A DNA stretch of 62,358 nt, counting the filler. It is 7 parts of 7 records of this genome, joined end to end, with 100 filler letters (N's around TTAATTAATTAA, not from the genome) between each part and the next. Parts side by side here need not be neighbours in the genome. Positions count along the whole stretch, not along the records: positions 26,571 to 45,247 come from SRR20825010_9; 6 more parts are not named here. The stretch is one strand, 5' to 3'. The first letter of the stretch is position 1, and each line of letters opens with the position of its first letter. Both the position numbers and the translations under genes were made by a program. Below, piece by piece: positions 17,202 through 50,862 of this stretch. The notes beneath the pieces were generated by a model, which had not been told where the DNA came from, did no database searches, and was given only the letters and a program-made list of their open reading frames with translations.

Positions 17202-17302
17202 AATATTCCAAAAAACAAATTCATATAAAATGCCCTTAAAAAATTATTAATAACAGAAGATGTGGAATTAGGGCGTTTCGTCTTCAAAAAAATACTATAA
17301 AA

Positions 17303-26470: not shown

Positions 26471-26570
26471 NNNNNNNNNNNNNNNNNNNNNNNNNNNNNN
26501 NNNNNNNNNNNNNNTTAATTAATTAANNNNNNNNNNNNNNNNNNNNNNNNNNNNNNNNNNNNNNNNNNNN
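26471..26570. other. Artificial contig-joining spacer
   Basis: N44-TTAATTAATTAA-N44. Confidence 0.99.
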
Positions 26571-27503: not shown

Positions 27504-27509
27504 GTGCGC

Positions 27510-28325: not shown

Positions 28326-28453
28326 GGGTTCAGCGCCTTGGCGATTTTCAGAAGTAATGCTGCTCAGGGTTTACGCTAATATCGGTACAGCTATCAATGT
28401 TACGTCATCATTCGTAATGTTAGTATCCCTACTTCGCGTCTGGGAGTGTTCAA

Positions 28454-29707
28454 TTGAGTCTTGATGTTGCTTTTGTCGGCTTTATCTTCCTGTTTTTTCT
28501 AGTATTTTGTATGTATTTCGCATGGTACGGTTTTTTTTCTTTCAGTTGGAATAAAGCCAAACCCGGAGCAGAATCGCTGGAAAAAAGTCCGGAATGGCAT
28601 GCGCTGCTGGACCGTCGCCGGGAAATTGAGAACGACCCCATGCTGGACGAGGGTAGCAAGCGGATTTTGATTGAAAACTGGCAAACCATGGCGCAGGAAA
28701 GCAAGCCGCACATGGACGCACGTGGATCCCTTCAATCATCCAATTCAAGCTGGATCAAACCCGCAGCTTTGCCCGTATTGGTCGGCGGCGCTTTGATACT
28801 GGCCATTGCATTCACTTATTCCATTGGCGCGATGAATGCCGGCTCCCTTCAGTGGCCGGGGCGCAATACAGATTTACCAGGCACTTCATCTGTGGATCAA
28901 GCGGTTGCCGCTTCGTCGGGCCATCCTGGCGATGGTGCAAGCCTGGAGGATCGTCTGGCTGGTTTGAAAATCCGCCTCGCCCAACAACCTGACGACCTGC
29001 GTGGCTGGGTGTTGTTGGCGCGTACCCACGCGTCGATGTCCAATTATCTGGACAGCGCTGCCGCACTGAAAAAAGCACTGGAATTGACGCCCGGTCATCC
29101 CGACATTCTTGCCGATTTGGCCGACATGACAGCGATGGCCCAAGGCCGCAAGCTGGCGGGCGAACCTGAAACCTACATTGCGGCAGCGCTGCAAAGCGAG
29201 CCCCGGCACGAGAAAGCCCTGGCCCTGGCTGCCAGTGCAGCTGAACAGGCGGGCGACCCGAACAAGGCACAGGTGTATTGGCAGTTGTTAAGCCAGGTTC
29301 AACAAGCCAGTTTGAAAGCTGCTGCCCCTGAACCGGTTGTTGCAGATGATGTGTTAACCACAGTCAGTCTGGCGTTGCCGCAGGCAATGCCAGGCGGCAT
29401 AAATGACAATTCCGCGCTGTTTGTGTTCATGAAATCGCAGGCTGGAGCAGGCATGCCCCTGGCCGTGGTGCGTGTACCCGCCAGGCAATTGCAGGTGGGG
29501 CAAGTTGTGCGTTTTGGTCCGGGCGACTTCATTCAAGAAGGCGCAGTGAATAATTTGCCGGACACCTTGCATTTTCAGGCACGCCTGTCGATTCAGGGCA
29601 TGGCACAGCCTGGTGATGGTGATGTGGTATCCGGATGGGTTTCTGTGCCGCGCAGCGAATTGAGCCGTGGGCTCTCTCTGGATTTGAACCAGGGCAGCGC
29701 CCGCTAA
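28454..29707 (+). CDS. ccmI: Cytochrome c biogenesis TPR protein CcmI/CycH
   Basis: Two TM segments, TPR-like PDDLRGWVLLAR, C-terminal ALFVF...GMPLAVVR...ARLS domain, at the head of the ccm operon. Confidence 0.82.
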   Translation: MSLDVAFVGFIFLFFLVFCMYFAWYGFFSFSWNKAKPGAESLEKSPEWHALLDRRREIENDPMLDEGSKRILIENWQTMAQESKPHMDARGSLQSSNSSWIKPAALPVLVGGALILAIAFTYSIGAMNAGSLQWPGRNTDLPGTSSVDQAVAASSGHPGDGASLEDRLAGLKIRLAQQPDDLRGWVLLARTHASMSNYLDSAAALKKALELTPGHPDILADLADMTAMAQGRKLAGEPETYIAAALQSEPRHEKALALAASAAEQAGDPNKAQVYWQLLSQVQQASLKAAAPEPVVADDVLTTVSLALPQAMPGGINDNSALFVFMKSQAGAGMPLAVVRVPARQLQVGQVVRFGPGDFIQEGAVNNLPDTLHFQARLSIQGMAQPGDGDVVSGWVSVPRSELSRGLSLDLNQGSAR

Positions 29708-31033
29708 ATGATCGACGCAACGCTTTCAACGCAACAACTGCATGTGCGCTGCACTAGCCTGCAAGCGGCGGGTGTGGTGTTGTCTGGTGAAATTCAATGT
29801 GTGTTGAATTCAGGCGAAGTGCATGTGTTGCGTGGCGCCAATGGTGTTGGCAAGTCCACCTTGTTGCGTGCACTGGCCAATGCCTTGCCGGGGCAAGCCA
29901 TGTTGTTCAAAGCGGAATACGGTTTGCGCGATGAACTGCTGGTACACGACCATTTGCAAAACCTGTTGGCGCACTTGAACCGGGCGCACACCGACATGGC
30001 GCATATTCTTGCGCAGGTCGGCCTGAGCGATTGGCAACACGAGCGAATCGGTACGCTGTCATCCGGGCAAAAGGCTCGCTTGGGTTTGTGTACATTGCTG
30101 GTGTCGCCTTTCAGGGTATGGCTGTTGGATGAACCTTTGAACGCGCTGGATACCGAAGGCCAGCAGGTGTTGGCCAAAGCCCTGGAACAGCATCTGCAAG
30201 CGGGTGGTTTCGTGTTCATGGCCACCCATGTTGACCCAGCTGGTTTGTTGCAACAATTGCCCGGTGTGCTCGTGAATGTGGATGTGTTGGCACAAGGGCA
30301 GCTGCGCGGCGATGCCGCCAGTCGAAAACCTGTGTCCCCGGCCAAGCCTTGTTTGTCATTAGAACCCACCGCGAATGTGCCTGTAGGGGCATTGATCAAG
30401 CGTGATTGGGCTGTGCTGTGGGGCAACCCCCAGGCGGTGCTTTGGGGGGCCTTGTTTCACTGGATGGTATTGAGTTTTTTCGGAATTGGATTGGGAAAAA
30501 CCAGCGTGGAATTTGCGCAAGTGGCCACTTGGGTAAGCTTGCTGCTTGCCGTACTGCTGGGTGCAAAAGACTGGTTTGCCGAAGACCAGCGCGTGGGCTG
30601 GATTCGTTTTCTGACCCAGATAAATCCGGGCATCACCGGCACCTATTGGCTGGTGCGTGTGTTGTACACAGCGTGTGCCCAAATGCTGGTGTTGGTGCCT
30701 GTTACCGGTTTGGCGGCTTTGCAGTTCGGTTTGAATGGCGCGCAGGCGCTGCAGTTGATTTTCGCCATGGTGGCGGGGGTGTGGGCCATTGCGCCCTTGC
30801 TGGGCGTGATTGGCCTTCTGGTGATGCTGACCCGCGGTGGCGCGGTGCTGGTGTATCTGTTCGCCTTGCCCCTGTTGGTGCCCATGCTGATATTTGGCCT
30901 TGAGGCCAGCCAGGCCGCAGACCTGGGTCGCAGCGCACTGGCCCCGCTGGCGGTGTTGTTCAGTTTGGGATTGTTGGCTTGCTTGCTTGGCCCCGTTGTG
31001 GCCAGGCGTCTTATTCAATTGATACAGGAATAA
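29708..31033 (+). CDS. ccmAB: Fused heme-export ABC ATPase and permease (CcmA-CcmB)
   Basis: Walker A GANGVGKST, LSSGQ, LLDEP and MATH, then in the same frame a six-TM CcmB-like domain (FAEDQRVG, LALPLLVP-type motif FALPLLVPMLIFG). Confidence 0.85.
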   Translation: MIDATLSTQQLHVRCTSLQAAGVVLSGEIQCVLNSGEVHVLRGANGVGKSTLLRALANALPGQAMLFKAEYGLRDELLVHDHLQNLLAHLNRAHTDMAHILAQVGLSDWQHERIGTLSSGQKARLGLCTLLVSPFRVWLLDEPLNALDTEGQQVLAKALEQHLQAGGFVFMATHVDPAGLLQQLPGVLVNVDVLAQGQLRGDAASRKPVSPAKPCLSLEPTANVPVGALIKRDWAVLWGNPQAVLWGALFHWMVLSFFGIGLGKTSVEFAQVATWVSLLLAVLLGAKDWFAEDQRVGWIRFLTQINPGITGTYWLVRVLYTACAQMLVLVPVTGLAALQFGLNGAQALQLIFAMVAGVWAIAPLLGVIGLLVMLTRGGAVLVYLFALPLLVPMLIFGLEASQAADLGRSALAPLAVLFSLGLLACLLGPVVARRLIQLIQE

Positions 31034-31035
31034 CC

Positions 31036-31728
31036 ATGTTTGGGCAGTTGGCTTCTCCGCCGAAATTTCATGCTGTGGCCAGTTGGCTGTGGGTCTGGTT
31101 GCTGCTGGCAGGTATTGTGCTGCTGGCTTTCGGTTTGTACACGGGCTTGTTTTTGGCGCCGGTGGACGTACAACAAGGCGAGGTGTATCGCGCTATTTAT
31201 GTGCATGTGCCTGCAGCCTGGATGTCGATGTTTTTATACCTGGTGGCCTGTGCTTATGCCATGCTGAACTGGGTGTACCGAAGCGACGTGTCTGCAGTCA
31301 TGATGCGGGCTTTGTTGCCCACCGGCGCGTGGATGACAGCACTGGCGCTGATCACCGGGGCTTTGTGGGGAAAGCCCACATGGGGCACCTATTGGGTGTG
31401 GGACGCACGCATGACATCCGAGTTGTTGCTGTTGTTCATTTACCTGGGTTTGATCGCCTTGGGTCAATTGGCCACCGACCCCGCCAAGGCTGATCGCGTG
31501 TTGGCGGTGGGTCTGTTGATCGGTGCGGTGAATATTCCCTTGATTTATCTGTCAGTGGTGTTTTGGAATACCTTGCATCAGGGTTACAGCGTGTCCTTGG
31601 GCGGTAGCCGCATTCACCCTGACATTGCCACAGGCATGTGGCTGAGCGTGTTGGGTTTCTGGCTGATCTGCGCCAGCACGGTATTGAACCGGGCAAGGCG
31701 TTTGTTGGTGCAGCGCCGGTGGCAGTAG
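31036..31728 (+). CDS. ccmC: Heme exporter CcmC
   Basis: IYVHVPAAW, WWD motif WGKPTWGTYWVWDARMT, and TLHQ. Start moved to ATG 31036. Confidence 0.95.
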   Translation: MFGQLASPPKFHAVASWLWVWLLLAGIVLLAFGLYTGLFLAPVDVQQGEVYRAIYVHVPAAWMSMFLYLVACAYAMLNWVYRSDVSAVMMRALLPTGAWMTALALITGALWGKPTWGTYWVWDARMTSELLLLFIYLGLIALGQLATDPAKADRVLAVGLLIGAVNIPLIYLSVVFWNTLHQGYSVSLGGSRIHPDIATGMWLSVLGFWLICASTVLNRARRLLVQRRWQ

Positions 31729-31759
31729 TGTCAATGAAGTTTCAAACAAGGTGTAGACA

Positions 31760-31930
31760 ATGAATTTTGATGCATGGCAAACCGTCTGGATTTTTGTGGC
31801 TTTAAGTGTGTTGGTGTTGCTTGTGGATGGTGTTTTTGCCTTTCGCGCTGGCCCTGATAAAACCGAGTTGGCACGCAAAAGCCAGCGCAACAGCCGTATG
31901 GCCCGCATGGGCAAGGGGAGCTGCCAATGA
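31760..31930 (+). CDS. ccmD: Heme exporter CcmD (56 aa, not in the ORF track)
   Basis: MNFDAWQTVWIFVALSVLVLLVDGVFAFRAGPDKTELARKSQRNSRMARMGKGSCQ*: one TM plus a basic tail, between ccmC and ccmE with an ATGA overlap. Confidence 0.75.
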   Translation: MNFDAWQTVWIFVALSVLVLLVDGVFAFRAGPDKTELARKSQRNSRMARMGKGSCQ

Positions 31931-32334
31931 GCAATGCGCGTGCTTACCGTACCGCCTGGCTGGCTGCCATTGTGGTGGTTGCACTGGGTTTTGGAATTGC
32001 ACTGGTCAAAGTGTTCAATGACAACCTGGTTTTTTTCTACACACCCACACAAATATTGAGCGGTGAAGTGCCCAAGGGCGAGAAAACCTATCGTTTGGGC
32101 GGCATGGTTGAAGTGGGCAGTGTTCAACGCGAAGCCGATTCATTGAAAGTGCGTTTTGTGGTCAGTGACATGAATAAAAAAGTACCGGTTGAATTCAACG
32201 GCATCGTTCCCGATCTGTTCAAGGAAGGCACCGGCGTGGTGGCCGATGGCCAGTGGGACGGAAGCACCTTCGTGGCTTCTGAAGTGTTGGCCAAGCACGA
32301 TGAAGATTACATGCCTCCCGGAGTCGACAAGTGA
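31927..32334 (+). CDS. ccmE: Heme chaperone CcmE
   Basis: FFYTPT, RLGGMV, PDLFKEG and LAKHDEDY (HxxxY). Confidence 0.95.
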   Translation: MSNARAYRTAWLAAIVVVALGFGIALVKVFNDNLVFFYTPTQILSGEVPKGEKTYRLGGMVEVGSVQREADSLKVRFVVSDMNKKVPVEFNGIVPDLFKEGTGVVADGQWDGSTFVASEVLAKHDEDYMPPGVDK

Positions 32335-34322
32335 TTTCATTTATATCGCAGTTCAGCCTGGCATTGGCCACTGTGCTGGCCTTGTTCGGTGCCGTGGCCG
32401 GCTTTGCAGCGGTGCGTGGTGTGTATACCCATGAACCTGCGGTGCCTTTGCTGGTGTCATTGCAGCGCAATGTGTTGCTGGTTTCCGGCTTGGTCAGCGT
32501 AGCCTTTCTAGGGCTGATTTATTCATTTGTACTTAGCGACTTTTCAGTTCGCAATGTGGCTGAAAATTCCAACCTGGCTTTGCCGGTGTTTTACAAGGTT
32601 GCTGCCAGCTGGGGTTCCCATGAGGGCTCCTTCTTGCTGTGGGTGCTCATGTTTGCGGGGTGGACGCAGGCGGTGGCATGGTCAGGTTTTGAAGTGTCTG
32701 CATGTTTCAAGGTGCGTGTGTTGGCAACCTTGCAATTGGTGTTGGTGGGCTTTTTGTTGTACCTGCTAACTGCCAGCAACCCTTTTGAATACCTGAACCC
32801 CACGCCAGTGGATGGCCGCGATTTAAACCCGCTGCTGCAAGACATCATCATGATTATTCACCCCCCCATGCTGTACATGGGTTATGTGGGTTTTGCCGTT
32901 ACTTTTGCCTTTGCCGTGGCGGGGCTGCTTGAAGGGCGTTTCGACATGACCTGGGCGCGCTGGAGCCGCCCCTGGACCAATGTGGCCTGGGCTTTTCTCA
33001 CGGTAGGAATTGCTTTGGGTAGCTGGTGGGCTTATCGCGAACTGGGTTGGGGCGGTTGGTGGTTTTGGGACCCGGTTGAAAATGCATCCCTGATGCCCTG
33101 GCTGGCTGGTACGGCCTTGATTCATTCACTGGCCGTGTCTGAAAAACGGGGCGCACTGCGCAGCTGGACTTTGCTGCTGGCACTGACAACCTTTGCCTTG
33201 TCCTTGTTGGGTACATTCCTGGTTCGCTCGGGTGTGCTTACTTCCGTACACGCATTTGCCACCGACCCTGAACGTGGCGTGTTCATTCTCGCCTTGCTGT
33301 TCATCGTGGTGGGTGCTTCTTACATTCTGTACGCGCTTAAAACCGGCGAGGTGGGGCAGGGTGGCAACTTCAAAGCCACCGGGCGTGAATCGCTGTTGTT
33401 GTCGAACAATGTGTTGATGAGCGCTGCGCTGGTTGCCGTCATGCTGGGCACACTTTACCCCTTGGTCGTCGAGGTAATTGGCGGGCGAAAAATGTCGGTG
33501 GGGCAGCCTTATTTTGAAGCCATGTTCGCCCCCATTTTGCTGCCCGCTGTGTTGCTGATGGCACTGGGCCCTGATTCACGCTGGCGCGAAACCCGGCTTG
33601 CTCAGTACATCAAACCCGGCGCAGTGGCTTTGGGTGCTGCTGTGCTGGTGTTGCTGGGTGCGTCATTGTTCAATGGCCACTTCAGCCTGCTGTGGGCGAT
33701 TGGCGTGGTGTGTGCTGTGTTCATGGCGGTGGCCACGCTGGCCCACGCGGCAGCGGCCACACGCAAGGCTGGTGCAGCGGCACCTGAAAGTGGCTTGCTT
33801 TACCGCATTCGCCGTTTGTCCCTTTCCTACTGGGGCATGGTACTTGCGCATTTGGGCGTGGCTGTGTTTGTGGTGGGTGTTAGCTGGGTAAAAACCTTCG
33901 AGACTGAAACCGATGCTGTGTTGAAACCGGGCGAAACCAGCGAGATTGGCCCGTGGCGCGTCACCTTCATTGGTGTTGATTCTGTGCAGCGACAAAACCA
34001 TGTGGCAGCACTTGGTGTGTTCGAACTGACGCGTGGCGAAGGCAGATTGATTCACTTGCTCGAACCCGAGAAGCGGCGCTACCAAAGTTCGGAACAGATC
34101 ATGACTGAATCTGCCATTCACACCGACTGGTTTTCTGATGTGTATGTCAGCCTTGGCGACGCCGTGCAAAGCAGCACCAGCAGCGGCGCCTGGGGTGTGC
34201 GCTTGTACTACAAACCGTTGATCAACCTGATTTGGCTGGGGTGTGCGCTGATGGCACTGGGTGGTTTGCTTACTGTGTTTGATCGCCGTTACCGGCCCAG
34301 AAAAAATGCGGTGGCAACATGA
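32331..34322 (+). CDS. ccmF: Heme lyase CcmF
   Basis: WGSHEGS, LNPLLQ, HPPMLY, WGGWWFWDPVENAS and SVHAFA. Confidence 0.97.
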   Translation: MISFISQFSLALATVLALFGAVAGFAAVRGVYTHEPAVPLLVSLQRNVLLVSGLVSVAFLGLIYSFVLSDFSVRNVAENSNLALPVFYKVAASWGSHEGSFLLWVLMFAGWTQAVAWSGFEVSACFKVRVLATLQLVLVGFLLYLLTASNPFEYLNPTPVDGRDLNPLLQDIIMIIHPPMLYMGYVGFAVTFAFAVAGLLEGRFDMTWARWSRPWTNVAWAFLTVGIALGSWWAYRELGWGGWWFWDPVENASLMPWLAGTALIHSLAVSEKRGALRSWTLLLALTTFALSLLGTFLVRSGVLTSVHAFATDPERGVFILALLFIVVGASYILYALKTGEVGQGGNFKATGRESLLLSNNVLMSAALVAVMLGTLYPLVVEVIGGRKMSVGQPYFEAMFAPILLPAVLLMALGPDSRWRETRLAQYIKPGAVALGAAVLVLLGASLFNGHFSLLWAIGVVCAVFMAVATLAHAAAATRKAGAAAPESGLLYRIRRLSLSYWGMVLAHLGVAVFVVGVSWVKTFETETDAVLKPGETSEIGPWRVTFIGVDSVQRQNHVAALGVFELTRGEGRLIHLLEPEKRRYQSSEQIMTESAIHTDWFSDVYVSLGDAVQSSTSSGAWGVRLYYKPLINLIWLGCALMALGGLLTVFDRRYRPRKNAVAT

Positions 34323-34888
34323 TCAAGAAACGTTTGCGCTTGTACTTGCCAATTTTGGTGTTGCTGTTTCTGGGCGTGTTTTTGCTGCGTGGTTTGTGGC
34401 TTGACCCCAAAAAATTGCCCTCGGCCCTGATTGGCAAACCTGCACCTGCGGTGGTGTTGCCTGTGCTCAGTTTTACCGGGCCAGCGGCGGGTGCTGTGCA
34501 GCTTGCCGACATTCAAGCCATGCAGAATATCGATGCATTGAAAGGCCAACCCTGGGTGTTGAATGTGTTTGCTTCCTGGTGCCAAGCCTGCCTTGTTGAA
34601 CACCCACATTTTATTGCCCTGGCCAAACAACAGAAAATCAAACTGGTGGGTTTGGCCTACAAAGACGACCTGGCCAACACCCGCCGCTGGCTGGCGCAGT
34701 ATGGCAATCCTTATGATTTGATCTTGATTGACCAGCAAGGCCAGTACGGCATTGAATTGGGTGTGTATGGCGTGCCCGAAACTTTTTTGATGAGTGCCAA
34801 CAACACCATTATTCACAAGCAGGTGGGGCCAATTCCCGCCGATTACTTTGACAGCATGGCACTGCCTGCCATCGAGGCTTCCCGATGA
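34319..34888 (+). CDS. ccmG: Thiol:disulfide interchange protein CcmG/DsbE
   Basis: PSALIGKPAP, FASWCQAC and GVYGVPETF. Confidence 0.93.
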   Translation: MIKKRLRLYLPILVLLFLGVFLLRGLWLDPKKLPSALIGKPAPAVVLPVLSFTGPAAGAVQLADIQAMQNIDALKGQPWVLNVFASWCQACLVEHPHFIALAKQQKIKLVGLAYKDDLANTRRWLAQYGNPYDLILIDQQGQYGIELGVYGVPETFLMSANNTIIHKQVGPIPADYFDSMALPAIEASR

Positions 34889-35298
34889 ATGTGAACGACC
34901 TGAATGCAGTTGAAAAAGAACATTACAAGGAAGTGGCCAGCGAGTTGCGTTGCCTAGTGTGCCAAAACCAGTCGCTGGCCGATTCGCATGCTTCTTTGGC
35001 AGTCGATTTGAAAGAGAAAATCGCTGAACAAATTCGCGCCGGGAAAACCAGTGAAGAAATCAAAAGCTACATGCAAGACCGCTATGGCGAGTTTGTGATC
35101 TACAAACCTGCTTACAGCATGGAAAATGCGGTGCTGTGGCTGGGGCCTTTTGTGGTGCTGGTTATTGCAGTGGTATTGGCACGCAAGGTGGGCAAGGGTG
35201 GGGGTGTAAATGGAATATCGAAACCCCCGGCTACTGAAGCAACCACAGCTTGGGCTGAAAGCCTGTATGTAAAAATGAAAAACAAGAAAGACGAATAA
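34885..35298 (+). CDS. ccmH: Cytochrome c biogenesis protein CcmH (CycL-type)
   Basis: LRCLVCQNQSLADS, RYGEFV and LWLGP. Confidence 0.93.
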   Translation: MNVNDLNAVEKEHYKEVASELRCLVCQNQSLADSHASLAVDLKEKIAEQIRAGKTSEEIKSYMQDRYGEFVIYKPAYSMENAVLWLGPFVVLVIAVVLARKVGKGGGVNGISKPPATEATTAWAESLYVKMKNKKDE

Positions 35299-35545
35299 GC
35301 ACCAGCGGTATTACCGCATTTGCGGGCTAACCTTTTTTTTGTTGAACAAAGCTTGTTGGGGATGGTACTTAAGAATTAAGACCTGAGGAAAAGTCGCGCT
35401 TTCAGCCTGCTGACATATTGATTGATAGTACGTTGTCTTGGCTTCGGTTGGTCGTATGTAACCCAGTGGCTTTGTAAAATTGCACAGATTTTATAAACAA
35501 CAGGTACCTATTAATAAAAAATTTTCTGCAAAAAAGGATGTCTGT

Positions 35546-36427
35546 ATGGTGGCCTCAGTAAATAGAACCCAACAATCCCAAAGTTATACAGATGAGGTTA
35601 ATTATAACGATGCCAAACGCCACATCCAAAATGAAAATGGAGTGACCAAAGAAGTATTTGGACGATACATCAAAGCTGAATTTGGTGATGTGACACCACA
35701 AGGTGCAATGGCTTTATTTGATGAAATTGATGCAAACAATTCTGGCGGTCTGCGTGAAGCGGAGTTCAGCAGGTGGGCTGCCAATTCAACAGTTGGTATC
35801 TCATCTGTTGGTTCTTCATCCAATACATCTGGTGCTGGCAGCAGCGTGTCCACCAATGGCGTAGATGCCACTTTTGGGAATTATAAAAAGTTGACAAGAG
35901 TCGATGGTGGCACGGACAGTTTTAACAACGTTAAATCAGACTACCTGGTCATTGTAGAAAGTCACGGCAGGAATGCCTCCGACCGTGTAGAGGCAAACGA
36001 GCTTCCAAAGGTTACAGGCGCCAAGCTTGTCAGCTTCGGTGGTAGTCACGACAAATACATCGCACTGTACAAAGTTACCGATTCAAACGTCTCAATCACT
36101 GGCGATGGTGGTTCTGGACAGGCGCTTTTCATCAATACAGACCAGCAGGTAAGTCTTAAGGCAAAAGGGGTTGATCCTTCTCTCGGTAGTGAAAAACTGA
36201 AGGGGCCTTCGAAGGCTAATGAACTGGTTATTTATGCCGAAGATGAAGGCGGAAAAGGCGCTAAGACAAACGGTGTCGCTGATCGTGATCGGTTTTTCAA
36301 ATCATATGCAAATGGCAGTTTTGGTTCGGGTGATGACCTTATCTATGTGATCGATAATCAGCTATCGGCTAACAATGACAAGGGGCCTAACCTCAATGGG
36401 GCAGCCGGTGTTTTGACATTCACATAA
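35546..36427 (+). CDS. Hypothetical protein with an EF-hand-like loop
   Basis: Likely start MVASV (35546) after AAAGGA. Contains DANNSGGLREAE, a Ser/Gly-rich linker and a beta-rich C-terminus. Confidence 0.65.
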   Translation: MVASVNRTQQSQSYTDEVNYNDAKRHIQNENGVTKEVFGRYIKAEFGDVTPQGAMALFDEIDANNSGGLREAEFSRWAANSTVGISSVGSSSNTSGAGSSVSTNGVDATFGNYKKLTRVDGGTDSFNNVKSDYLVIVESHGRNASDRVEANELPKVTGAKLVSFGGSHDKYIALYKVTDSNVSITGDGGSGQALFINTDQQVSLKAKGVDPSLGSEKLKGPSKANELVIYAEDEGGKGAKTNGVADRDRFFKSYANGSFGSGDDLIYVIDNQLSANNDKGPNLNGAAGVLTFT

Positions 36428-36452
36428 TCCATTTGGTCAATTGCCCATTGAC

Positions 36453-39400
36453 TCAGCAGTTTTGAAGCAAATCCCGAATTTTCTCGAATTCGGCCTCCAG
36501 CAGTTCTTTGCCAGTTTGAACAATGCTGTCGTCAGTTTCCTGTGCGGCGGTTTCTATCAAACCGCAGGTGTCGGCCAGGGTTTTTGCACACAGTCCAAGT
36601 GCAGTGCCCTTGATTTTGTGGGTCACCCTGATCACGCCTTGCATGTCTGAATTCCTGATCATGTTGTCCAGCTTTTCAAGTTGTTTGCCTTTGTCTGCGA
36701 TGAAGGCCAACAGCAGGTCTTTTGCAAAATCCCTGTCGTTCCCCGTGATTTCATCCAATGCGTTCCAATCAATGGGTGATGTCATGGTTGTCAGCACGGG
36801 TAACTTTTTTCGGCCAGGTTCAAGCCATTTAATCAATGCTGATTTAAGGGTTTCCATGCGCACAGGTTTTACCAACACATCGTCCATGCCAGCGGCCAAA
36901 CAGCGTTCGCGTGTTTCACTTAGGGCATCGGCGGTATAGCCAATAAGTGCTTGTACACGGCGATCAGGGCGAAGGGCTGTAATTTCCCGGATGTGTTGAG
37001 CCACGTCAAAGCCACTCATCTTGGGCATCTGGCAATCACAGATGAACAAGTCATAATCCTTTTCTATCCACTTCGACAAAGCTTCCAGGCCATCACCGGC
37101 CACGTCAACATTGCAACCCATCAGGCCAAGCTGGTTTTTGAGCAATGCCCGGTTGATTTCATTGTCGTCTGCAATCAGGATATTTGCGTTCCTGACGTAC
37201 TGGGGTACATCAATTTTCTTCGAATTCCTCCCGCTTTCGTTTTGCGTGCGTTTTTGGGGTTCGGTTCTTCTCAATGGCAGCGTAACGGTCATGCACGAAC
37301 CTTCGTTAAGCACGCTGTGCAAGGCAAGTTTTCCCCCTAGAAGTTTGGCGAGCCGCTGGGATATCGAAAGCCCAAGACCTGTGCCACCAAATTTCTTGCT
37401 GGTGTCGTGCGCCGCCTGAACAAACGGATCAAAAATCTGATTCTGAGCTTCAGGACAGATGCCAATCCCCGTGTCAATTACTTCAATCACGATTTGTTCG
37501 CTGCCTTGCTCGTCCCGTTTCATTGCTGCATTGAATTCAATTCCACCTTTGTGGGTAAATTTGACGGCATTGCTCAGCAGGTTGAACAAAATTTGTCGCA
37601 AACGCAATGGATCGCATTCCATGGAATGCGGAATGTTTTCATCAAACTTCATGTGCAAATACAGACCCTTGGCCTGTGCAGATTGCGAGAACAGATCTGC
37701 CGCGAATTCAAACGCACTTTTCAGTGACATCGGTTCAAGATTCACCTCCAGTTGTCCCGCTTCAATTTTTGACAGGTCCAAAATATCGTTGATGATGTCG
37801 AGCAATGAATAGGCCGACTGCCGTGTCAGCTTCAGCAAGTGGGCTCGCTCTTTCGCCGCACTGGTTTGTTCCAGCAACTCCGACATGCCGATGATGGCAT
37901 TCAATGGCGTGCGAATTTCGTGCGACATGTTGGCAAGAAAACTGGTCTTGGCCTGATTGGCTGATTCGGCTGCTTCGCGTGCCTGCGCCAATTCAGAAGT
38001 TCTTGTCGCGATACGCTGTTCAAGGTCCGCATTCCAGCCCCGCAGTTTTTCTTCGAGCTTTTTTTGATGGGTGATGTCCCGAGACACTGACAACAATCTG
38101 CCCGGTTTCCCCTGATTGTTGGCAATGGGGCTGATAATCACATCCCACCATTTTTCTGTGCCTTTCATGGTGGGGGTCATTGCTTGAAACCGACCCAGTT
38201 GGCCAGCTTTTGCGCAATTCAGTGCGTCCTGTACTTTGGGCTGGTCTTTCTCGTTCCAGAATGTCAGCCAGTCAGCGCCTTCAATGTCGCAGAAGTTGTC
38301 CACTTCCATAATTTGGCAACCACGTGCTGTCATGAAAAGTAGCTTGGCGTCCAGGTCGAGAACTTTGAGGCAATCGGGGCTGCTCTCAATCATGCTGTTG
38401 ACGAAAGCCATGTTTGCAGCCAGGTCTGTGGTCCTTTTTTTGACCAGTTTTTCGAGTTCATTCTTTCGGTTGTTCAGTGCATTTTCGGCTGCTTTTTTCT
38501 CGGAAATATCAATATGAATGCCATACATCATCAATGGTGATCCATCCTTGGCGCGGCTCACCACGCGGCCATGGGACTGAACCCAAACCCAGTGTCCATC
38601 TTTGTGTTTAAGGCGAAAGGGTTGTTCGAATACATCGATGAGTCCCTGAAAATGCTGCTTCAACATACGTTCCGATTCAAGCAGGTCATCCGGGTGTACG
38701 CGTGATCGCCACACCTCAAGATCAAGTGGTTGAAGCTCTTCAAGTGTGAAGCCCATGATTTGTGCCCATCGATCATTCACAATGATTTTGTTTTCGGGAA
38801 TGTTCCATTCCCAGGTTCCGGCGCTGGTGCCTTCAATAACGCCATGCAGCCTTTTTTTCTCAAGATAAAGTTCTTCTTGCGTTCGCTGGATGTCGGTCAG
38901 GTTTTGCGCGATGTGCAAGTAACCGCTGAACTCTCCGTCCTCGATATGGAGCGGGTTGACTGTCAATTCAACATCGATGTGTTTTCCTGTTCTGGAGATC
39001 AGTGTCCAATAGCGGCGTTCTACCCGCCCATCGCGTGCTTTACCGATCAGGGTGTAATGGTCATTGACAAGGGTTTTTTGAGATTCCTGAAGAAGCTGGC
39101 TTTTGCGAATCAGGATTTCGTTGGGTTCATGGAAATCAAGTGAATGAAGCTTGTTGATGGCTTGCTCGGCCGTGCATTCCAGCATCAGTTCCGCTGCTTT
39201 GTTGAAATGCGTGATCAAGCCGTCGGGATCGGTCGCAATAACTGCAGCATCTGTTGAGTTTAAAATCGATTGCTGGAATGCATTCTCCGACTTCAATAAC
39301 CTTGCAGTTCGCTTCAGCTCCATTTGCGAAACAACTTGTTTGGCCAGTTGCAACAGGGCTTTTTTTTGCGAATCTTTCAGCTTCCCCGGTTTAAGGTCGA

Positions 39401-39794
39401 TGACGCACAAGGTGCCCAGCGCATAACCGCGCGGGGACACAATTGGTGCGCCCGCATAGAAACGGATGTGTGGTGCGCCGCTCACCAAGGGGTTGTCGCG
39501 AAAGCGTTCGTCCTGCAAAGTGTCCTGGATTTCCATCAATCCTGTTTGGGCAATTGCGTGACCACAAAAGGAGATGTCCCGGGCTGTTTCTGTTTCGTCG
39601 AATCCGATGGTGCTTTTGAACCACTGGCGTTGCTCGTCGATCAACGAGATCAACGCAGTTGGCGTGCCACAAATTTCAGCCGCCAATTCAGCAATGGCGT
39701 CAAATTCGCCTTCTGCAGGGGAGTCCAGTAATTTGTAGCTGCACAAATCCTTGAGCCGGGCGATTTCATTCAGGGGGGTGGGTGCTGGCATCAT
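36453..39794 (-). CDS. Hybrid sensor kinase GAF-PAS-PAS-PAS-HisKA-HATPase-REC-HPt
   Basis: GAF (DISFCGHA, HIRFYAGAP), PAS (VHPDD), FLANMSHEIRTPLN, GGTGLGL, REC DCQMP and HPt HKIKG. Confidence 0.95.
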   Translation of the reverse strand: MMPAPTPLNEIARLKDLCSYKLLDSPAEGEFDAIAELAAEICGTPTALISLIDEQRQWFKSTIGFDETETARDISFCGHAIAQTGLMEIQDTLQDERFRDNPLVSGAPHIRFYAGAPIVSPRGYALGTLCVIDLKPGKLKDSQKKALLQLAKQVVSQMELKRTARLLKSENAFQQSILNSTDAAVIATDPDGLITHFNKAAELMLECTAEQAINKLHSLDFHEPNEILIRKSQLLQESQKTLVNDHYTLIGKARDGRVERRYWTLISRTGKHIDVELTVNPLHIEDGEFSGYLHIAQNLTDIQRTQEELYLEKKRLHGVIEGTSAGTWEWNIPENKIIVNDRWAQIMGFTLEELQPLDLEVWRSRVHPDDLLESERMLKQHFQGLIDVFEQPFRLKHKDGHWVWVQSHGRVVSRAKDGSPLMMYGIHIDISEKKAAENALNNRKNELEKLVKKRTTDLAANMAFVNSMIESSPDCLKVLDLDAKLLFMTARGCQIMEVDNFCDIEGADWLTFWNEKDQPKVQDALNCAKAGQLGRFQAMTPTMKGTEKWWDVIISPIANNQGKPGRLLSVSRDITHQKKLEEKLRGWNADLEQRIATRTSELAQAREAAESANQAKTSFLANMSHEIRTPLNAIIGMSELLEQTSAAKERAHLLKLTRQSAYSLLDIINDILDLSKIEAGQLEVNLEPMSLKSAFEFAADLFSQSAQAKGLYLHMKFDENIPHSMECDPLRLRQILFNLLSNAVKFTHKGGIEFNAAMKRDEQGSEQIVIEVIDTGIGICPEAQNQIFDPFVQAAHDTSKKFGGTGLGLSISQRLAKLLGGKLALHSVLNEGSCMTVTLPLRRTEPQKRTQNESGRNSKKIDVPQYVRNANILIADDNEINRALLKNQLGLMGCNVDVAGDGLEALSKWIEKDYDLFICDCQMPKMSGFDVAQHIREITALRPDRRVQALIGYTADALSETRERCLAAGMDDVLVKPVRMETLKSALIKWLEPGRKKLPVLTTMTSPIDWNALDEITGNDRDFAKDLLLAFIADKGKQLEKLDNMIRNSDMQGVIRVTHKIKGTALGLCAKTLADTCGLIETAAQETDDSIVQTGKELLEAEFEKIRDLLQNC

Positions 39795-39882
39795 GGCGGG
39801 TCTCCTTGATCAATTCGAGCGTGAAGCCTTTGTGTTGACAGGTACCAAACTTGGTTGAATCAGCATGACTAATAATATCACA

Positions 39883-39907
39883 ATTGGTAATATTGGTATA
39901 ATTGGTA
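39883..39907 (+). promoter_or_regulatory. Three 9-bp-period ATTGGTA repeats overlapping an extended -10 promoter
   Basis: ATTGGTA at 39883, 39892 and 39901. TG-G-TATAAT at 39894-39902, upstream of the regulator gene. Confidence 0.7.
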
Positions 39908-39937
39908 GAACCGCTTGCTTGAATTGCAACATTAACA

Positions 39938-40561
39938 ATGGTTAAAACAATGAATGACGCAACAGATTACTGCTCAATCAAAGAGGCCTCTCAAATATTG
40001 GGGGTTTCGCCAAAAACGATTCAATTGTGGGTCGAGAAAGGCAGCCTGCGTGCCTGGAAAACTGCTGGTGGGCATCGGCGTATCATCCGCGAATCGGTGA
40101 ATGCCTTAATCAAGGCACGAAATCCTCAAGCTGCATCCAATGCCGGTTCCGGGTTGCCTAACCTGGAACAAGGCATGCGGGTGTTGATCGTTGAAGATGA
40201 GGAAGCGCTTCGCCGACTCTACGAGTTCAATGTCCGGCAATGGGCCAATTCCATTCAGGTTGAGCTGGCCAAAGATGGTTTTGAGGCATTGCTGCGCATT
40301 GGCAAGACCAAACCCGATGTGTTGATCACCGATTTGAGTATGCCGGGTATGGATGGCTTCAAGATGCTGCGTCGCCTGAGCGAGCTTGGTGAATTGGGCT
40401 CCATGTTGGTCATTGTGATCACCTCCTACGATTCAGAGGCGATACAAAACCTGGGCAGCTTGCCCGAAGGTGTTCATGTTTTTGAAAAACCAGCGCCTTT
40501 CAAGTCAATCCGGCAGCTGGTTGTGGATAGCGTGGCGGAAAAAATGGCGCTTTCCAGATAA
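39938..40561 (+). CDS. Response regulator with an N-terminal excisionase-like (HTH_17) DNA-binding domain and a C-terminal receiver
   Basis: SIKEASQILGVSPKTIQLWVEKG...KTAGGHRRI, then VLIVEDE, TDLSMPGMDG and EKP. Confidence 0.9.
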   Translation: MVKTMNDATDYCSIKEASQILGVSPKTIQLWVEKGSLRAWKTAGGHRRIIRESVNALIKARNPQAASNAGSGLPNLEQGMRVLIVEDEEALRRLYEFNVRQWANSIQVELAKDGFEALLRIGKTKPDVLITDLSMPGMDGFKMLRRLSELGELGSMLVIVITSYDSEAIQNLGSLPEGVHVFEKPAPFKSIRQLVVDSVAEKMALSR

Positions 40562-40585
40562 TTCGTGGTCGTTTTTGATTTTCTG

Positions 40586-40647
40586 AATTGGTAATAAATT
40601 ACCAATTTAATCCATTTCTCCTTGACTAAATCGGTAATATCGGTAAT
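40586..40647. promoter_or_regulatory. ATYGGTAAT operator-like sites upstream of the DUF11 operon
   Basis: Palindrome AATTGGTAAT-AA-ATTACCAATT (40586-40607). Tandem ATCGGTAAT x2 (40630-40647) just after TTGACT (40622). Confidence 0.65.
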
Positions 40648-40727
40648 TATTTCCTTAAGTGTTGATTAAGCACCTGCTCGTCCTCTGTCATTTCAGGGGT
40701 GTTTGCAAACATTGAAGGAAAAATACG

Positions 40728-41234
40728 ATGAGACCCATCACCACAGCAAGTTTGTTCGCGCTGTTGGCCGTTTTCAGCAGTGTGGTCCACAGTAAAGAAG
40801 ACGTCAAAATTGATCTTCAGGTTCATTTGGTTCAAATGGACGCCAAAGGTCTGGAAGTTTTCAAACCAGCCCAACAAGCCAATCCTGGCGACATTCTTCA
40901 GTACAAAGTGATTTGCCGGAATCAGGGCGACACCCTGGCTCGCAATGTCATGGCGATCTTGCCGGTTCCCGCACGGGAACTTGTGTTCGTGAAAGACAAA
41001 ACCGATTTGCAGAATCTTCAAGCCAGTCTGGATGGTCGGGTATTCGGTGATTTACCACTGAAGAAAATTTCCAAGACCCCGGATGGCCGAATCGAGACCG
41101 TCGATGCTGATCCCGCTGATTACCGTTTTCTGCGGTGGGCTGTTGGCGATATTCCCCCACAGAAAAGCGCCACGATGTATGCACGCATGCGTGTAGCACC
41201 TGGCGATGATTCGATTGCAGGAGGGCAACAATGA
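40728..41234 (+). CDS. Secreted single DUF11-like domain protein
   Basis: Signal peptide (VHS), ANPGDILQYKVICRNQG and LRWAVGDIPP...ARMRV. Confidence 0.8.
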   Translation: MRPITTASLFALLAVFSSVVHSKEDVKIDLQVHLVQMDAKGLEVFKPAQQANPGDILQYKVICRNQGDTLARNVMAILPVPARELVFVKDKTDLQNLQASLDGRVFGDLPLKKISKTPDGRIETVDADPADYRFLRWAVGDIPPQKSATMYARMRVAPGDDSIAGGQQ

Positions 41235-43873
41235 GCAACAACAATTCCTCTGGATCCATGCAGAAATTCACGACCACCGTTGTGTGGGGTTTGTGGGTCG
41301 TTGCCTTTATCGCTTTCATGTTGGTGTGGCTGAAAGATGCGCACGCAGCCCCTGTGGCCGGAACGTCGATTGGTAACCAGGCATCAGCAACGTACACCGA
41401 CGGATCACAAACCACGCGTACGGTGACCAGTAACACAGTGGTCACGATTGTGCAGCATGTGGCCAGTTTGACCTTGACAGCCGATGGCAACAAAAACGTC
41501 ACCGCTGGTGGGCAGGTAAGCTTCCCGCACACCTTGACCAACACCGGTAACGGGGTTGACCAGTTCAGTTTGACCACGGTCAACTCGGGCGCTTTCACGT
41601 TTGATCAGGTGAAGATTTATGCCGATCTGGATGGCAATGGTGTACCCGACAATTCATCCGAGATTTCGAACACAGGCGATCTTGCACCCGGTCAGGCATA
41701 CAACTTCGTCATCGTGGGGCAGGTTCCCACCACAGCCAGTTCAGGTTCAGCCAATGACATCACAGTCACGGCGACCAGCGGGTTTGATTCCACAAAGACG
41801 GCTTCAAATACTGACACCACAACCGTGTCCAGCAATGCTGTGGTGAATGTGACCAAGTCTATTGATGTGGCCAGTGGTTCGGCTGGCAGTGGTCCGTACA
41901 CTTACACGCTGACTTACAACAACACTGGAAACAGTGCTGCGAGCAATTTGGTGATCACGGATGACATCCCGGACGGCATGACGTATGTGCCGGGCAGCGG
42001 ACGCTGGACCAGCACAGGTGCCACCGTGTTGACTGACCTGGATGCGACCGATGACCAGGGCGGCATTGTTTACGATTTCAATGTCACCACAACAGACACG
42101 GTAAGGGCAGTGATTGCAGTGGTGCCTGCTGGTTCCTCTGCCTCAATTTCCTTTCAAGTGAATGTGGATAACGGTCTTGACGCAGGCTCAAACCCAGCCA
42201 CCTTGAATACGGCTTACTACAGTTACAACGACGGCAGTGCAGATGTTGCGCAGAACTTCACGAACTCGGTGCAGTTCCGTGTTGATCAAACCGTGGCAGT
42301 AAGCTCGACTGGTGACTCCGTGGCGGCTGCAGCCCAGGGCAGTACAGTGACTTTCACCAACGTGGTGAGCAATGATGGCAACGGCGAGGACACTTTTGAT
42401 TTGACCATGATCAATTCATCGTTCCCGGCGGGCACTGCCTTCGTGCTGTACCAGGCCGACGGCGTTTCTCCTTTGCTGGACAGCGATGGTGACGGTGTGC
42501 CCGATACGGGGCCGTTGGGTCAAAATGAAAGTGTGTCGTACGTGGTCAAGGCGATTTTGCCAAGCGATGCATCCGCTGGTGGTCCCTACACGGTTGAGGC
42601 AAAGGCGACTTCGAGTGTGGATGTGGCAGTGTTTGCAGTGGCCACCGACACCTTAAGCACCATTACCAGCAACAGTGTTGATTTGACCAACGATGTGTCT
42701 GGTGCAGGTGCTCCAGGTTTCGGACCCGGTGCAGAAGCGGTGTCTGTTGACACCAATCCTGTCAACCCCGGAAGTACCACCACATTCACCCTGGCAGTGG
42801 CCAATTCAAGCAGTGTTGCAGACAACTTCAACCTGCTTGCCAGTACCGATTCGACCTTCTCCACGATTGGATTGCCAGATGGATGGAGCGTTGTGTTTCG
42901 TGATGCCAGCGGTGCCGTGATCACGAACACGGGTGTTGTCAATGGGGGTAGCACCGTCACGGTGACTGCTGAAGTGTCAGTGCCGGCAGATTATGTGCCG
43001 GGTACGGAAGACATCTATTTCCGTGCGGTTTCTCCCAACTCTGGCGCAGGCGACATTGTGCACAATGCTGTGACCGTGAATACCGTTCGCAACGTGGTGT
43101 TGGAAAGCAACAATTCCGGGCAGGTGTCGCCAGGCGGAACGGTGACCTACACGCACACCTTGTCCAACCTGGGCAATGTTACTGAGGGCAACGGCACCAC
43201 CAGCAGCATCGACTTTGCATTGGTCGACGACAAAGACGGCTTCTCTTCGATTGTTCATTGGGACATCAACAACAACGGTGTGCTGGATCCATCCGACCCA
43301 GTGGTCACCGATGCGTCGCAGTTGACCGGGGGAAGCAATGGTGCAAGTACAAATCCGGGTCTCGATCCGGGCGAAAGTGCGACGCTGTTCGTGAAGGTTC
43401 AAGCGGGCGCAAACGCCACAGCTGGTGCGATGAATACCAGCAGTTTGAGCGCAACAACCAGCGGCACCATCGATACTCAGGCCGCGCCCACAGCAGCCAG
43501 CGTGGACGATGCAACCACCGTGATTGCCGGAAGTGTGAAATTGGTCAAGAAGCAGGCACTGGATGCGGACTGCAATGGTTTGCCGGACACCGCATTCACC
43601 ACAGCCGACCTGACCAATGGTGCTGTACCCGATGCGTGTATTCGCTACGAGATTACAGCCAGGAACGTGGGTGTTTCTGAAGTGCTTGATCTGGTGGTCA
43701 GCGATGCAACACCTGTGCACACCATCTATCACGCGGTGTCCCCGGCTGCTGCGAGTGCTGGCACGGTAACGGCCCCCGCTGCCGATGACTCCGGGACCAT
43801 TCAGGTCACTGCCAACAGTCTGGCTCCGGACCAGACCCTTGTCTTGACCTTCGGCGTGAAGATCATGCCTTGA
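41231..43873 (+). CDS. Secreted multi-Ig DUF11-repeat protein (putative fibre subunit)
   Basis: Signal peptide ending AHA, DUF11 motif VTKS...YTLTYNNTGN...VITDDIPDGMTYVPGS, DxDGxG-type Ca loops, and Thr/Ser/Val-rich composition. Confidence 0.85.
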   Translation: MSNNNSSGSMQKFTTTVVWGLWVVAFIAFMLVWLKDAHAAPVAGTSIGNQASATYTDGSQTTRTVTSNTVVTIVQHVASLTLTADGNKNVTAGGQVSFPHTLTNTGNGVDQFSLTTVNSGAFTFDQVKIYADLDGNGVPDNSSEISNTGDLAPGQAYNFVIVGQVPTTASSGSANDITVTATSGFDSTKTASNTDTTTVSSNAVVNVTKSIDVASGSAGSGPYTYTLTYNNTGNSAASNLVITDDIPDGMTYVPGSGRWTSTGATVLTDLDATDDQGGIVYDFNVTTTDTVRAVIAVVPAGSSASISFQVNVDNGLDAGSNPATLNTAYYSYNDGSADVAQNFTNSVQFRVDQTVAVSSTGDSVAAAAQGSTVTFTNVVSNDGNGEDTFDLTMINSSFPAGTAFVLYQADGVSPLLDSDGDGVPDTGPLGQNESVSYVVKAILPSDASAGGPYTVEAKATSSVDVAVFAVATDTLSTITSNSVDLTNDVSGAGAPGFGPGAEAVSVDTNPVNPGSTTTFTLAVANSSSVADNFNLLASTDSTFSTIGLPDGWSVVFRDASGAVITNTGVVNGGSTVTVTAEVSVPADYVPGTEDIYFRAVSPNSGAGDIVHNAVTVNTVRNVVLESNNSGQVSPGGTVTYTHTLSNLGNVTEGNGTTSSIDFALVDDKDGFSSIVHWDINNNGVLDPSDPVVTDASQLTGGSNGASTNPGLDPGESATLFVKVQAGANATAGAMNTSSLSATTSGTIDTQAAPTAASVDDATTVIAGSVKLVKKQALDADCNGLPDTAFTTADLTNGAVPDACIRYEITARNVGVSEVLDLVVSDATPVHTIYHAVSPAAASAGTVTAPAADDSGTIQVTANSLAPDQTLVLTFGVKIMP

Positions 43874-43883
43874 GTCCCCGTTT

Positions 43884-43922
43884 CCGGCCCCGCCCGGGAG
43901 GGTAGCGGGCCGGTTTTTTTTC
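43884..43922 (+). terminator. Intra-operon GC-rich hairpin with U-tract
   Basis: CCGGCCCCGC...GCGGGCCGG followed by T9, between the 880-aa gene and the next gene. Confidence 0.8.
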
Positions 43923-43950
43923 TCAAAACGCTAAAACGAGAGGATACGAT

Positions 43951-45247
43951 ATGAATCAGTATCTGATGATCCTGCTCGCTTGGTTTTCAATGTTTTCCGC
44001 TGCCTCTGCAGTATTTGCAGCATCGACCATCCAGCCTTTGACGGCTGGTGGCACCGTGCTGAACCAGGCCAGTTTGTATTACGTCGACAACGCAACGGGT
44101 TTGCCTTCAAATCTGGCATCCAACGCTGTGCGTGTCTTCATGCAGCAATACGAAGCCGGCCTTCTGCTGAGCGATCAACGGCAACGCCGAACAGCAGGAA
44201 ATTCGGTCACGTTAAAGCATCGCCTTGTCAATACTGGCAATTCAATCACTGCGTACAACTTGCGTTTGGAGAACCATGCAAACGATCAATTTGATATTGA
44301 TCCATTGTTGCTGGTGCACGATCTCAACGAAAATGGCGAACCTGATTCTGGTGAACCCACCGTAACGTCCATCGAGCTATTGCCTGGGCAGGCTGTTGCG
44401 CTGTTGATTTCGGGCGTGGTGCCTGTTGATGCCAGTGGGCTATCAAAAATTGATGTGGTGGCCTATCGGGGCGACATCGAATTTGCACGCAACACAGACA
44501 CTGTTGAAGTAACGGCAGGTGCCGTACTGGTTTTGAGCCTTGAAGCGTCCACCCTGACACCGGTGCCCGGCGAACACGTGGAGCTGGTATTAAACACACA
44601 GAACACAGGCAATGCAATTGCCGATGGGATTGATTATGAAGTGGACGGTCGCGTTGAATCGGGTCTTCTGATTGTTCAGGAAATCGCACCGAATACGCAG
44701 TTTGTGGATGCGGGTGCCAAGGTGGGCCGGGTGTTGTACAAGACAGGAAATAACTATGATTTTTCTGCCACGCCACCGTCCGATTTAAGCCGAGTCACTG
44801 CGGTTGCGTATGTGCTTGAAAGCCTGATGCCCACAGCCGATGCTCAGTTCAATCTGACCGTTCAAGCCAATGACAATTCATCGGGTGAGTTGCCTTACCG
44901 GTCCCAGGCCTACTACGACAATGCCGTGGCAGTGGACAATTCAATGTCGTCTTCCAACCAGGTGGTTTTGCTGCTTGAGCCCAGCCCACCCGAAATTACT
45001 TACTATTCAGACCCTTCGTTTTCTGCGCCTGCCACGGCGACTCGTTTGGGCACTCCCTTGTATTTGCAGGCTGATGCAAGTGCATGCAATTCAAACGCCT
45101 CGCTTGTTGACGAGGTGGTGATCACCATTCGTTCAGAATTGTCTGGCGATGAGGAGCAGTTTCTGGGCGTGGAACAGGGTATCAACACTGGGATTTTCCG
45201 GATTCCACAAGCCATTGAAACCAGCAACATGCGGATCAGCAATATGG
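43951..45247 (+). CDS. Large secreted DUF11-like protein (3'-truncated)
   Basis: Signal peptide, VLNQASLYY...SNAV, HRLVNTGN, DLNENGEPD and PGEHVELVLNTQNTGN. Runs into the spacer. Confidence 0.8.
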
Positions 45248-45347
45248 NNNNNNNNNNNNNNNNNNNNNNNNNNNNNNNNNNNNNNNNNNNNTTAATTAAT
45301 TAANNNNNNNNNNNNNNNNNNNNNNNNNNNNNNNNNNNNNNNNNNNN
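45248..45347. other. Artificial contig-joining spacer
   Basis: N44-TTAATTAATTAA-N44. Confidence 0.99.
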
Positions 45348-50762: not shown

Positions 50763-50862
50763 NNNNNNNNNNNNNNNNNNNNNNNNNNNNNNNNNNNNNN
50801 NNNNNNTTAATTAATTAANNNNNNNNNNNNNNNNNNNNNNNNNNNNNNNNNNNNNNNNNNNN
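50763..50862. other. Artificial contig-joining spacer
   Basis: N44-TTAATTAATTAA-N44. Confidence 0.99.

Follow-up and report, generated by a model that had tools for sequence, protein, structure and literature searches.

In the biofilm fiber of Clostridium perfringens, one BsaA subunit's N-terminal donor strand enters the next subunit, where a bond between N35 and K74 forms with E56 as the catalyst; the mechanism is termed "exchange and lock," and a mutant of each of the three residues loses oligomers, according to the preprint text describing it (bioRxiv 10.1101/2024.11.04.621531). The account of the archaeal thread protein Saci_0406 likewise describes donor-strand complementation, together with a proposed covalent link from the N-terminal α-amine of Asp24 to Asn57 that would connect subunit n to subunit n+2 (PMC9715654). 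Proximity-induced bonds are also known from α-helical spore fibers. The DUF11 family was recently renamed CLIPPER and described in a survey as a CnaA-like domain, with PDB entry 9IFR being a CLIPPER structure that contains a Lys715/Asp748/Asn806 bond (PMC12617251). Here we describe P2, a protein encoded in a 62,358-nucleotide stretch of DNA (the window), in which a CLIPPER domain is predicted to be divided between the mature N terminus (the donor hairpin) and the C terminus (the acceptor half-domain). P2 belongs to a conserved four-gene set, P1-P2-P3-P4, and we consider it fairly probable that P2 is the shaft subunit of a cell envelope fiber in which this split domain joins chains by a Lys-Asn bond. 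The initial annotation of the window, made from the letters of the sequence alone, had predicted an intersubunit bond of this kind, and its interpretation is supported by the sequence evidence presented below.

The P2 system is likely a new form of donor-strand, isopeptide-locked fiber. It shares with BsaA a donor strand and an Asn/Lys/acid triad that locks the joint, the lock being proposed in the case of P2. As characterized in the preprint, BsaA differs in its TasA-like fold, Gram-positive host, dependence on SipW, and single donor strand, whereas the P2 system combines a CnaA-like CLIPPER domain and a two-strand hairpin as donor with diderm hosts, a putative barrel-bearing base, a putative separate tip, and a half-domain helper. 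The TasA-like family Peptidase_M73 was detected in only 1 of 46 acceptor fragments (E value, 0.049), and general Pfam scans of P1 to P4 listed no signal peptidase. Archaeal threads, as reported for Saci_0406, resemble the P2 system in having a donor-strand joint and a proposed covalent link through an Asn side chain, but they have no Lys/acid triad, their fold has no Pfam family, and their hosts are exclusively archaeal. In comparison with the published description of 9IFR, the internal domain of P2 is unexceptional, belonging to the same fold family and having the same Lys/Asp/Asn triad; the terminal copy is unlike it in being split across the protein ends and between proteins, such that any bond would join chains. 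The words "split" and "Catcher" are absent from the main text of the CLIPPER survey (PMC12617251), and literature searches, supplements not covered, returned no account of a split CLIPPER/DUF11 domain or of the P1-P4 operon. A paper on "tafi" (PMC11821415) matched only because the family name DUF1102 begins with the characters "DUF11"; the paper has no isopeptide content and was rejected.

P1, P2, and P3 are three co-oriented genes on the contig piece at positions 26571-45247 of the window, and the stop codon of P1 overlaps the start codon of P2 (ATGA). Their features are as follows.

40728..41234, plus strand: P1, 168 amino acids, with a signal peptide and a stand-alone acceptor half-domain and without a donor hairpin.
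41231..43873, plus strand: P2, 880 amino acids, a translated open reading frame (ORF) for a putative secreted shaft subunit of tandem immunoglobulin (Ig)-like domains; 43873 is the end of the stop codon.
41231..41347, plus strand: predicted Sec signal peptide (P2 residues 1-39, the last three being AHA), in which A-x-A comes after a hydrophobic stretch.
41348..41479, plus strand: P2 donor hairpin (residues 40-83), which corresponds to the final two strands of a CLIPPER domain; N49 codon, 41375-41377.
41816..42310, plus strand: internal complete CLIPPER/DUF11 domain (P2 residues 196-360), whose triad is K209 (41855-41857), D244 (41960-41962), and N326 (42206-42208).
43514..43870, plus strand: P2 acceptor half-domain (residues 762-880), which corresponds to the first ~119 CLIPPER positions and reaches the C terminus of the protein, with the codons of K773 (43547-43549), Q775 (43553-43555), and D825 (43703-43705) and the Cys pair C781/C803.
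43951..45247, plus strand: 5' part of P3, with a signal peptide and a donor hairpin, truncated by the contig end.

The signal peptide of P2 was called by direct reading of the translation, and position 41348 opens the codon of Ala40, the first residue past it. All of the P2 residues named in the initial annotation were found in the translation of 41231-43873 in the contexts given there: N49 in SIG[N]QAS, K209 in NVT[K]SID, D244 in VIT[D]DIP, N326 in ATL[N]TAY, K773 in KLV[K]KQA, and D825 in VVS[D]ATP. The donor hairpin of P3 occupies residues ~29-72 (44035-44166), and the N38 assigned to this third protein is present (TVL[N]QAS; codon, 44062-44064), but its ORF is cut by the contig end at 45247. 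Full-length P3 (1902 amino acids; 11817-17525) and the fourth gene, P4 (930 amino acids), are known only from a 98%-identical contig of a Limnobacter metagenome-assembled genome (L001). The system was drawn more narrowly in the initial annotation than the real set, which has four genes and, by our reading, heterotypic joints of P3 into P2 and of P2 into P4 in addition to joints of P2 into P2.

P2 matched DUF11 (PF01345) at 47.2 bits (cutoff, 24.6; best stretch, residues 206-296), NPCBM_assoc of Pfam at 34.9 bits, and TIGR01451 at 59.6 bits (cutoff, 24). A profile of the internal domain built from 46 genomes of several phyla (A3) aligned with chain A of 9IFR (E, 1.8e-5) and placed K209 and D244 on its Lys and Asp. 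The alignment ends short of the Asn, and N326 was assigned from its strict co-occurrence with K209; both residues are present in 72 of the 121 P2 homologues compared and neither in 49, with no mixed cases. Used as a single sequence, the internal domain retrieved nothing meaningful from the PDB. The DUF11 score, the match to 9IFR, and the co-occurrence agree with the annotated identity of this region as a CnaA-like isopeptide domain, in which K209, D244, and N326 would hold an ordinary intramolecular bond.

Sub-alignments of the 121 homologues were then compared by hhalign, with the internal domain taken as 165 positions. P2 residues 762-880 aligned with positions 1-119 (probability [Prob], 96.7; E, 3.6e-10), the alignment ending at the last residue of the protein, and residues 40-83 aligned with positions 122-165 (Prob, 93; E, 3.3e-7); the terminal CLIPPER copy is therefore not one contiguous domain. 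The next-best matches of the termini elsewhere in P2 reached E values of only 0.011 and 0.093, and reversed-order profiles gave 0.058 to 0.19, which together argue that more than chance makes the termini resemble the internal domain. A3 was also matched by profiles from loci of many phyla, with Prob and E values of 97.3 and 2.1e-11 for the acceptor (A4), 91.2 and 1e-6 for the P2 donor (A5), and 90.5 and 1.3e-6 for the P3 donor (A6); the last of these upholds the earlier equation of the N-terminal hairpin of the third protein with a donor. Pfam DUF11 was matched by 45 of 46 acceptor fragments, the fragment from this locus spanning profile positions 17-84 of 114. Matches of A4 to the PDB were weak only (best E, 0.034). 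By these profile comparisons, the termini of P2 are a single CLIPPER domain split in two, as had been proposed, with the first five or so strands, bearing K773 and D825, at the C terminus and the last two, bearing N49, at the mature N terminus. The equivalence of this terminal triad to the internal one was borne out for D825 and N49, which lie on D244 and N326 in the hhalign register, but that of K773 is ambiguous by two residues.

The acceptor also contains two Cys residues, C781 and C803 (43571-43573 and 43637-43639), that are kept in at least 90% of homologues and flank a loop of ~15-18 residues. This Cys-flanked loop is found in the P2 acceptor and not in the internal domain or in the P4 acceptor. 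The pair is probably disulfide bonded, in keeping with a location outside the cytoplasm.

Scoring of 8000 candidates gave 1310 P2 homologues at E values of ≤1e-3, and the sources of these matches include Limnobacter, Sulfuriferula, and Thiobacillus denitrificans. Those among the 120 matches listed are 819-924 amino acids long, and the current annotation of the family is only "beta strand repeat-containing" or DUF11 protein. The operon was seen in Pseudomonadota, Acidobacteriota, Abditibacteriota, Balneolaceae, and Verrucomicrobiota. Across acceptor fragments (n = 46; mean column identity, 36%), K773, Q775, P800, Y806, D825, P828, T831, and F874 are invariant, as are N49, I47, A51, Y55, S67, N68, and V74 across donor hairpins (n = 51). 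N49 occurs in 120 of 120 homologues and in each of the 109 loci with complete P2, of which 106 have K773 and 106 have D825 (rows L020, L043, and L047 were misaligned and were read by eye for K773), and this near-invariance of the triad persists down to 31-37% identity. On a tree of the 121 homologues, K773 changed 7 times and D825 changed 6 times; in seven independent pairs, D825 followed K773 in six, remained unchanged in one, and did the opposite in none (P = 0.031). The alignment check suggested along with the initial annotation thus yielded a triad that is near-invariant across several phyla and in which K773 and D825 are lost together. A search for further lineages lacking K773, with P0042 as the query against 3 and then 401 genomes of one phylum, gained none (best match, 51-57% identical).

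A short form of P2 (~440 amino acids) was observed in 36 of the 109 loci (L051-L055 and many of L103-L141; e.g., L053, 9902-11227). Both the donor hairpin and the acceptor half-domain, with the N, K, Q, and D residues, are retained in it, and the one example read, that of L053, has fewer internal domains and none of the K209 type. Judged from these sequences, the conserved core of the family seems to consist of the two ends of P2.

The genes around P2 encode further halves of the same domain. Of the 101 loci with 700 nucleotides or more of sequence upstream of P2, 91 have a P1 homologue directly upstream of it; P2 is followed by a long ORF in 92 of 97 loci, and a downstream ORF ending in an acceptor half-domain was found in 47 of the 72 loci for which 9.8 kb or more of downstream sequence was available. 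In hhalign, the profile of the P1 family (36 sequences) aligned with the P2 acceptor (Prob, 90.7; E, 1.3e-6) as far as the acceptor's last residue and with positions 7-127 of the 165 of the internal domain (Prob, 94.7; E, 5.7e-8), and it did not match the donor (Prob, 0.05). In family scans, P1 matched DUF11 alone and weakly. In P1, the Lys site is taken by a hydrophobic Leu or Val, and LP(I/V)P replaces the S-D-x-T-P of the acceptor. The initial annotation had described the 168-amino-acid protein as lacking the Lys and the Asp, and the corresponding segments indeed read DLQVH (residues 29-33) and ILPVP (residues 77-81), in a protein that is an acceptor half-domain by profile.

Full-length P3 of L001 consists of the N-terminal donor hairpin, Ig-like domains (DUF11, SdrD_B, and CarboxypepD_reg), and a porin-like C-terminal β-barrel. 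The C-terminal 750 residues of 18 P3 homologues matched OMP_b-brl in six cases, Phenol_MetA_deg in five, and Porin_4 in four, and the same region matched the OmpT porin in the PDB (E, 1.7e-5), while the P3 C terminus as a single sequence found nothing there. A terminal aromatic residue was considered as an outer membrane signal of P3 and rejected, as only 4 of the 76 complete P3 proteins end in F. In P4, the sole half of the domain is an acceptor at the C terminus, bearing both Lys and Asp; in profile alignments, this Lys fell on K773 of the P2 acceptor (Prob, 98.9; E, 1.3e-17) and on K209 of the internal domain (E, 1.1e-11). A donor-like N terminus was absent from all 52 P4 proteins, and a C-terminal acceptor was found in 1 of 78 long P3 proteins, that one being a misassigned ORF (L092). 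The set therefore comprises a donor-only protein with a barrel (P3), a protein with donor and acceptor (P2), an acceptor-only protein (P4), and an acceptor without Lys and Asp (P1), and the orphan halves in P3, P4, and P1 imply that partners are needed on other chains.

Losses of triad residues can be followed from joint to joint. In three loci (L062-L064), positions 773 and 825 of P2 are T and N, and the donor Asn of P3 is replaced by L, V, and V, respectively; N49 of P2 is retained in all three, and P4, recovered in L062 and L064, keeps its Lys and Asp. Such a pattern is what one would expect from a P3 hairpin that enters the acceptor of P2 and a P2 hairpin that also enters that of P4. Seven loci with S or G at the P3 Asn site still have N49, K773, and D825 in P2, and in L015, where P4 has Q and N, the full triad of P2 is retained. 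The retention of the P2 triad despite changes in P3 or P4 fits joints between P2 chains.

For the assembly as a whole, we propose that the N-terminal hairpin of one chain would insert into the C-terminal half-domain of another and complete its Ig fold, in the order P3 into P2, P2 into P2, and P2 into P4. Insertion would bring the Asn, Lys, and Asp together in the hydrophobic core, where a Lys-Asn isopeptide bond would then form autocatalytically with the loss of NH3 and with D825 as the catalytic residue. The product would be a covalent chain running from a barrel anchor through n copies of the shaft subunit to a tip. Before assembly, donor hairpins would be bound reversibly by P1, in the manner of a chaperone or a cap.

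Several observations weigh against this reading. In the hhalign comparison with the internal domain, the invariant Q775 falls on the canonical Lys site and K773 lies two residues earlier on the same strand face; the comparison with P4, in which K773 falls on the canonical Lys and Q-A forms a two-residue insertion, is the only alignment giving that register. N49 is retained in all 21 of the 121 homologues without K773, so that N49 must be constrained by something other than the Lys of P2 itself, and its persistence is explained only if N49 also serves the Lys of P4. A buried salt bridge could likewise account for Lys and Asp being lost together. The loci L062-L064 are close relatives, so their co-loss is effectively one event, and the P3 Asn is missing in 9 of 78 loci by alignment (S in six, G in one, and V in two) and, by eye, also in L062 (Leu); L065 has an Asp there, which could still react with Lys. 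The K209/N326 pattern amounts to only two events on the tree and is accordingly consistent with the claim for the internal domain without being statistical proof of it. The juxtaposition of the terminal triad is drawn from homology only, and the fiber could lie either outside the cell or in the periplasm.

Some of these points are what would be seen if hairpins complemented acceptors between chains without a covalent bond at the P2 acceptors, with K773, Q775, D825, and N49 forming a buried polar or salt-bridge network, or if only the P2-to-P4 joint, with its canonical Lys, were covalent. The position of Q775, the joint loss of Lys and Asp, and the persistence of N49 without K773 all suit such an arrangement, and the BsaA N35A oligomer is, in the preprint's account, SDS (sodium dodecyl sulfate) stable until heated (bioRxiv 10.1101/2024.11.04.621531), which indicates that donor-strand joints can be strong without a bond. 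We nonetheless judge it unlikely. The Asn of the internal domain was replaced in every homologue that had lost the Lys (49 of 49), which argues that folding by itself does not require an Asn at this site; near-invariance across phyla is seen for Lys, Asp, and Asn alike; and the Asn of P3 was lost along with K773 and D825 of P2. A hairpin folding back into the half-domain of its own chain would, with a Lys-Asn bond, give a covalent ring in place of a polymer. Both halves are on one polypeptide, and the sequence forbids nothing of the kind, but P3 has a donor without an acceptor, P4 and P1 have acceptors without donors, and the short P2 forms of ~440 amino acids retain both ends. The donor alignment, moreover, continues into the linker and the first strand of the next domain, as at the internal domain junction, which suits an in-line rod, and we regard ring closure as very improbable. 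That the two conserved ends do not pair with each other, the N terminus being an export or sorting signal and the C terminus a truncated Ig or sorting domain whose CLIPPER similarity has no meaning for assembly, strikes us as extremely improbable. Conserved termini are typical of sorting signals, and the C-terminal fragment from this locus alone scored 21.5 bits, below the Pfam cutoff of 24.6. The two pieces nevertheless abut exactly, the acceptor ending at position 119 and the donor starting at 122, and an Ig domain without two core strands would not be stable alone; by direct reading, the C terminus of P2 (...FGVKIMP) has no LPXTG motif, PEP-CTERM-like tail, or hydrophobic tail or anchor, and the family spans phyla with different sorting systems.

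If the Lys-Asn bond between chains forms, P2 would be a natural split isopeptide domain, and assembly by exchange and lock, as in BsaA and archaeal threads, would extend to diderms of many phyla and to a different fold. The natural donor/acceptor pairs (P3 into P2, P2 into P2, and P2 into P4), together with the nonreactive P1, might then serve as orthogonal protein ligation reagents. The proposal, if true, would also assign a role to the large family of 1310 homologues counted above. The wider proposition that the operon represents an unrecognized, widespread class of diderm fibers, made without sortase or usher, with the split CLIPPER domain as a built-in Tag/Catcher and P1 as a groove-donating chaperone, is plausible from sequence but tentative.

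Tag/Catcher pairs resemble P2 in that an Asn/Asp strand is separated from the rest of an isopeptide domain and that the parts reconstitute and bond spontaneously; they differ in being man-made, whereas P2 would be a natural split evolved for assembly, if the bond forms. SpyTag/SpyCatcher and isopeptag are such engineered split-domain pairs, and, to our knowledge, split isopeptide domains have so far been known only as engineered Tag/Catcher tools. The engineered pairs are made from pilin or adhesin domains of Gram-positive bacteria. Articles on engineered split-domain pairs include PMC5487036 and PMC8878318.

Family scans of P1 to P4 found no PapD-like chaperone and no PapC/FimD-type usher; the C terminus of P3 matched porin-type and OMP_b-brl barrels and not usher families. 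In chaperone-usher pili, the incomplete Ig fold of a subunit is made whole by an N-terminal extension of the next subunit. The P2 system shares with them a predicted completion of the Ig fold and an operon with a small periplasmic helper and an outer membrane barrel protein, but P1 would offer a groove and not a strand, the reverse of chaperone-usher logic if true, and the joints are probably covalent. Sortase-assembled pili of Gram-positive bacteria have Ig-like shafts with internal Lys-Asn bonds, and sortase makes their joints at LPXTG. Shafts of Ig-like domains, internal Lys-Asn bonds, and covalent subunit joints, the last two predicted for P2, are shared features, and no sortase family was found in general Pfam scans of the operon proteins.

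Contigs ~99% identical to the locus were present in three marine metatranscriptome runs of one study and cover it; one, of 4039 nucleotides, spans 40668-44707 and so includes P1, P2, and the start of P3. Carry-over of DNA into these libraries cannot be excluded, and one contig is no proof of a single transcript. The contigs start at 40668-40804, near the start of P1, and none lies over the intergenic region at 40437-40615, which hints weakly that a transcript may start upstream of P1.

The window consists of contigs joined end to end by linkers of the form N44-TTAATTAATTAA-N44, located at 4933-5032, 13159-13258, 26471-26570, 45248-45347, 50763-50862, and 58692-58791. In steps of 2 kb, the guanine-plus-cytosine content ranges from 0.30 to 0.56 and is lower in some contigs than in others; this unevenness may reflect a mixed genome bin. 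Three features were identified upstream of the operon on the same contig.

35480..36427, plus strand: ORF of 315 amino acids with no NCBIfam family match.
36453..39794, minus strand: hybrid sensor kinase.
39938..40561, plus strand: response regulator with an excisionase-type helix-turn-helix.

The response regulator was considered as a member of the system and rejected, because it adjoins the operon in only 10 of 78 loci; it probably represents local regulation and not part of the system.

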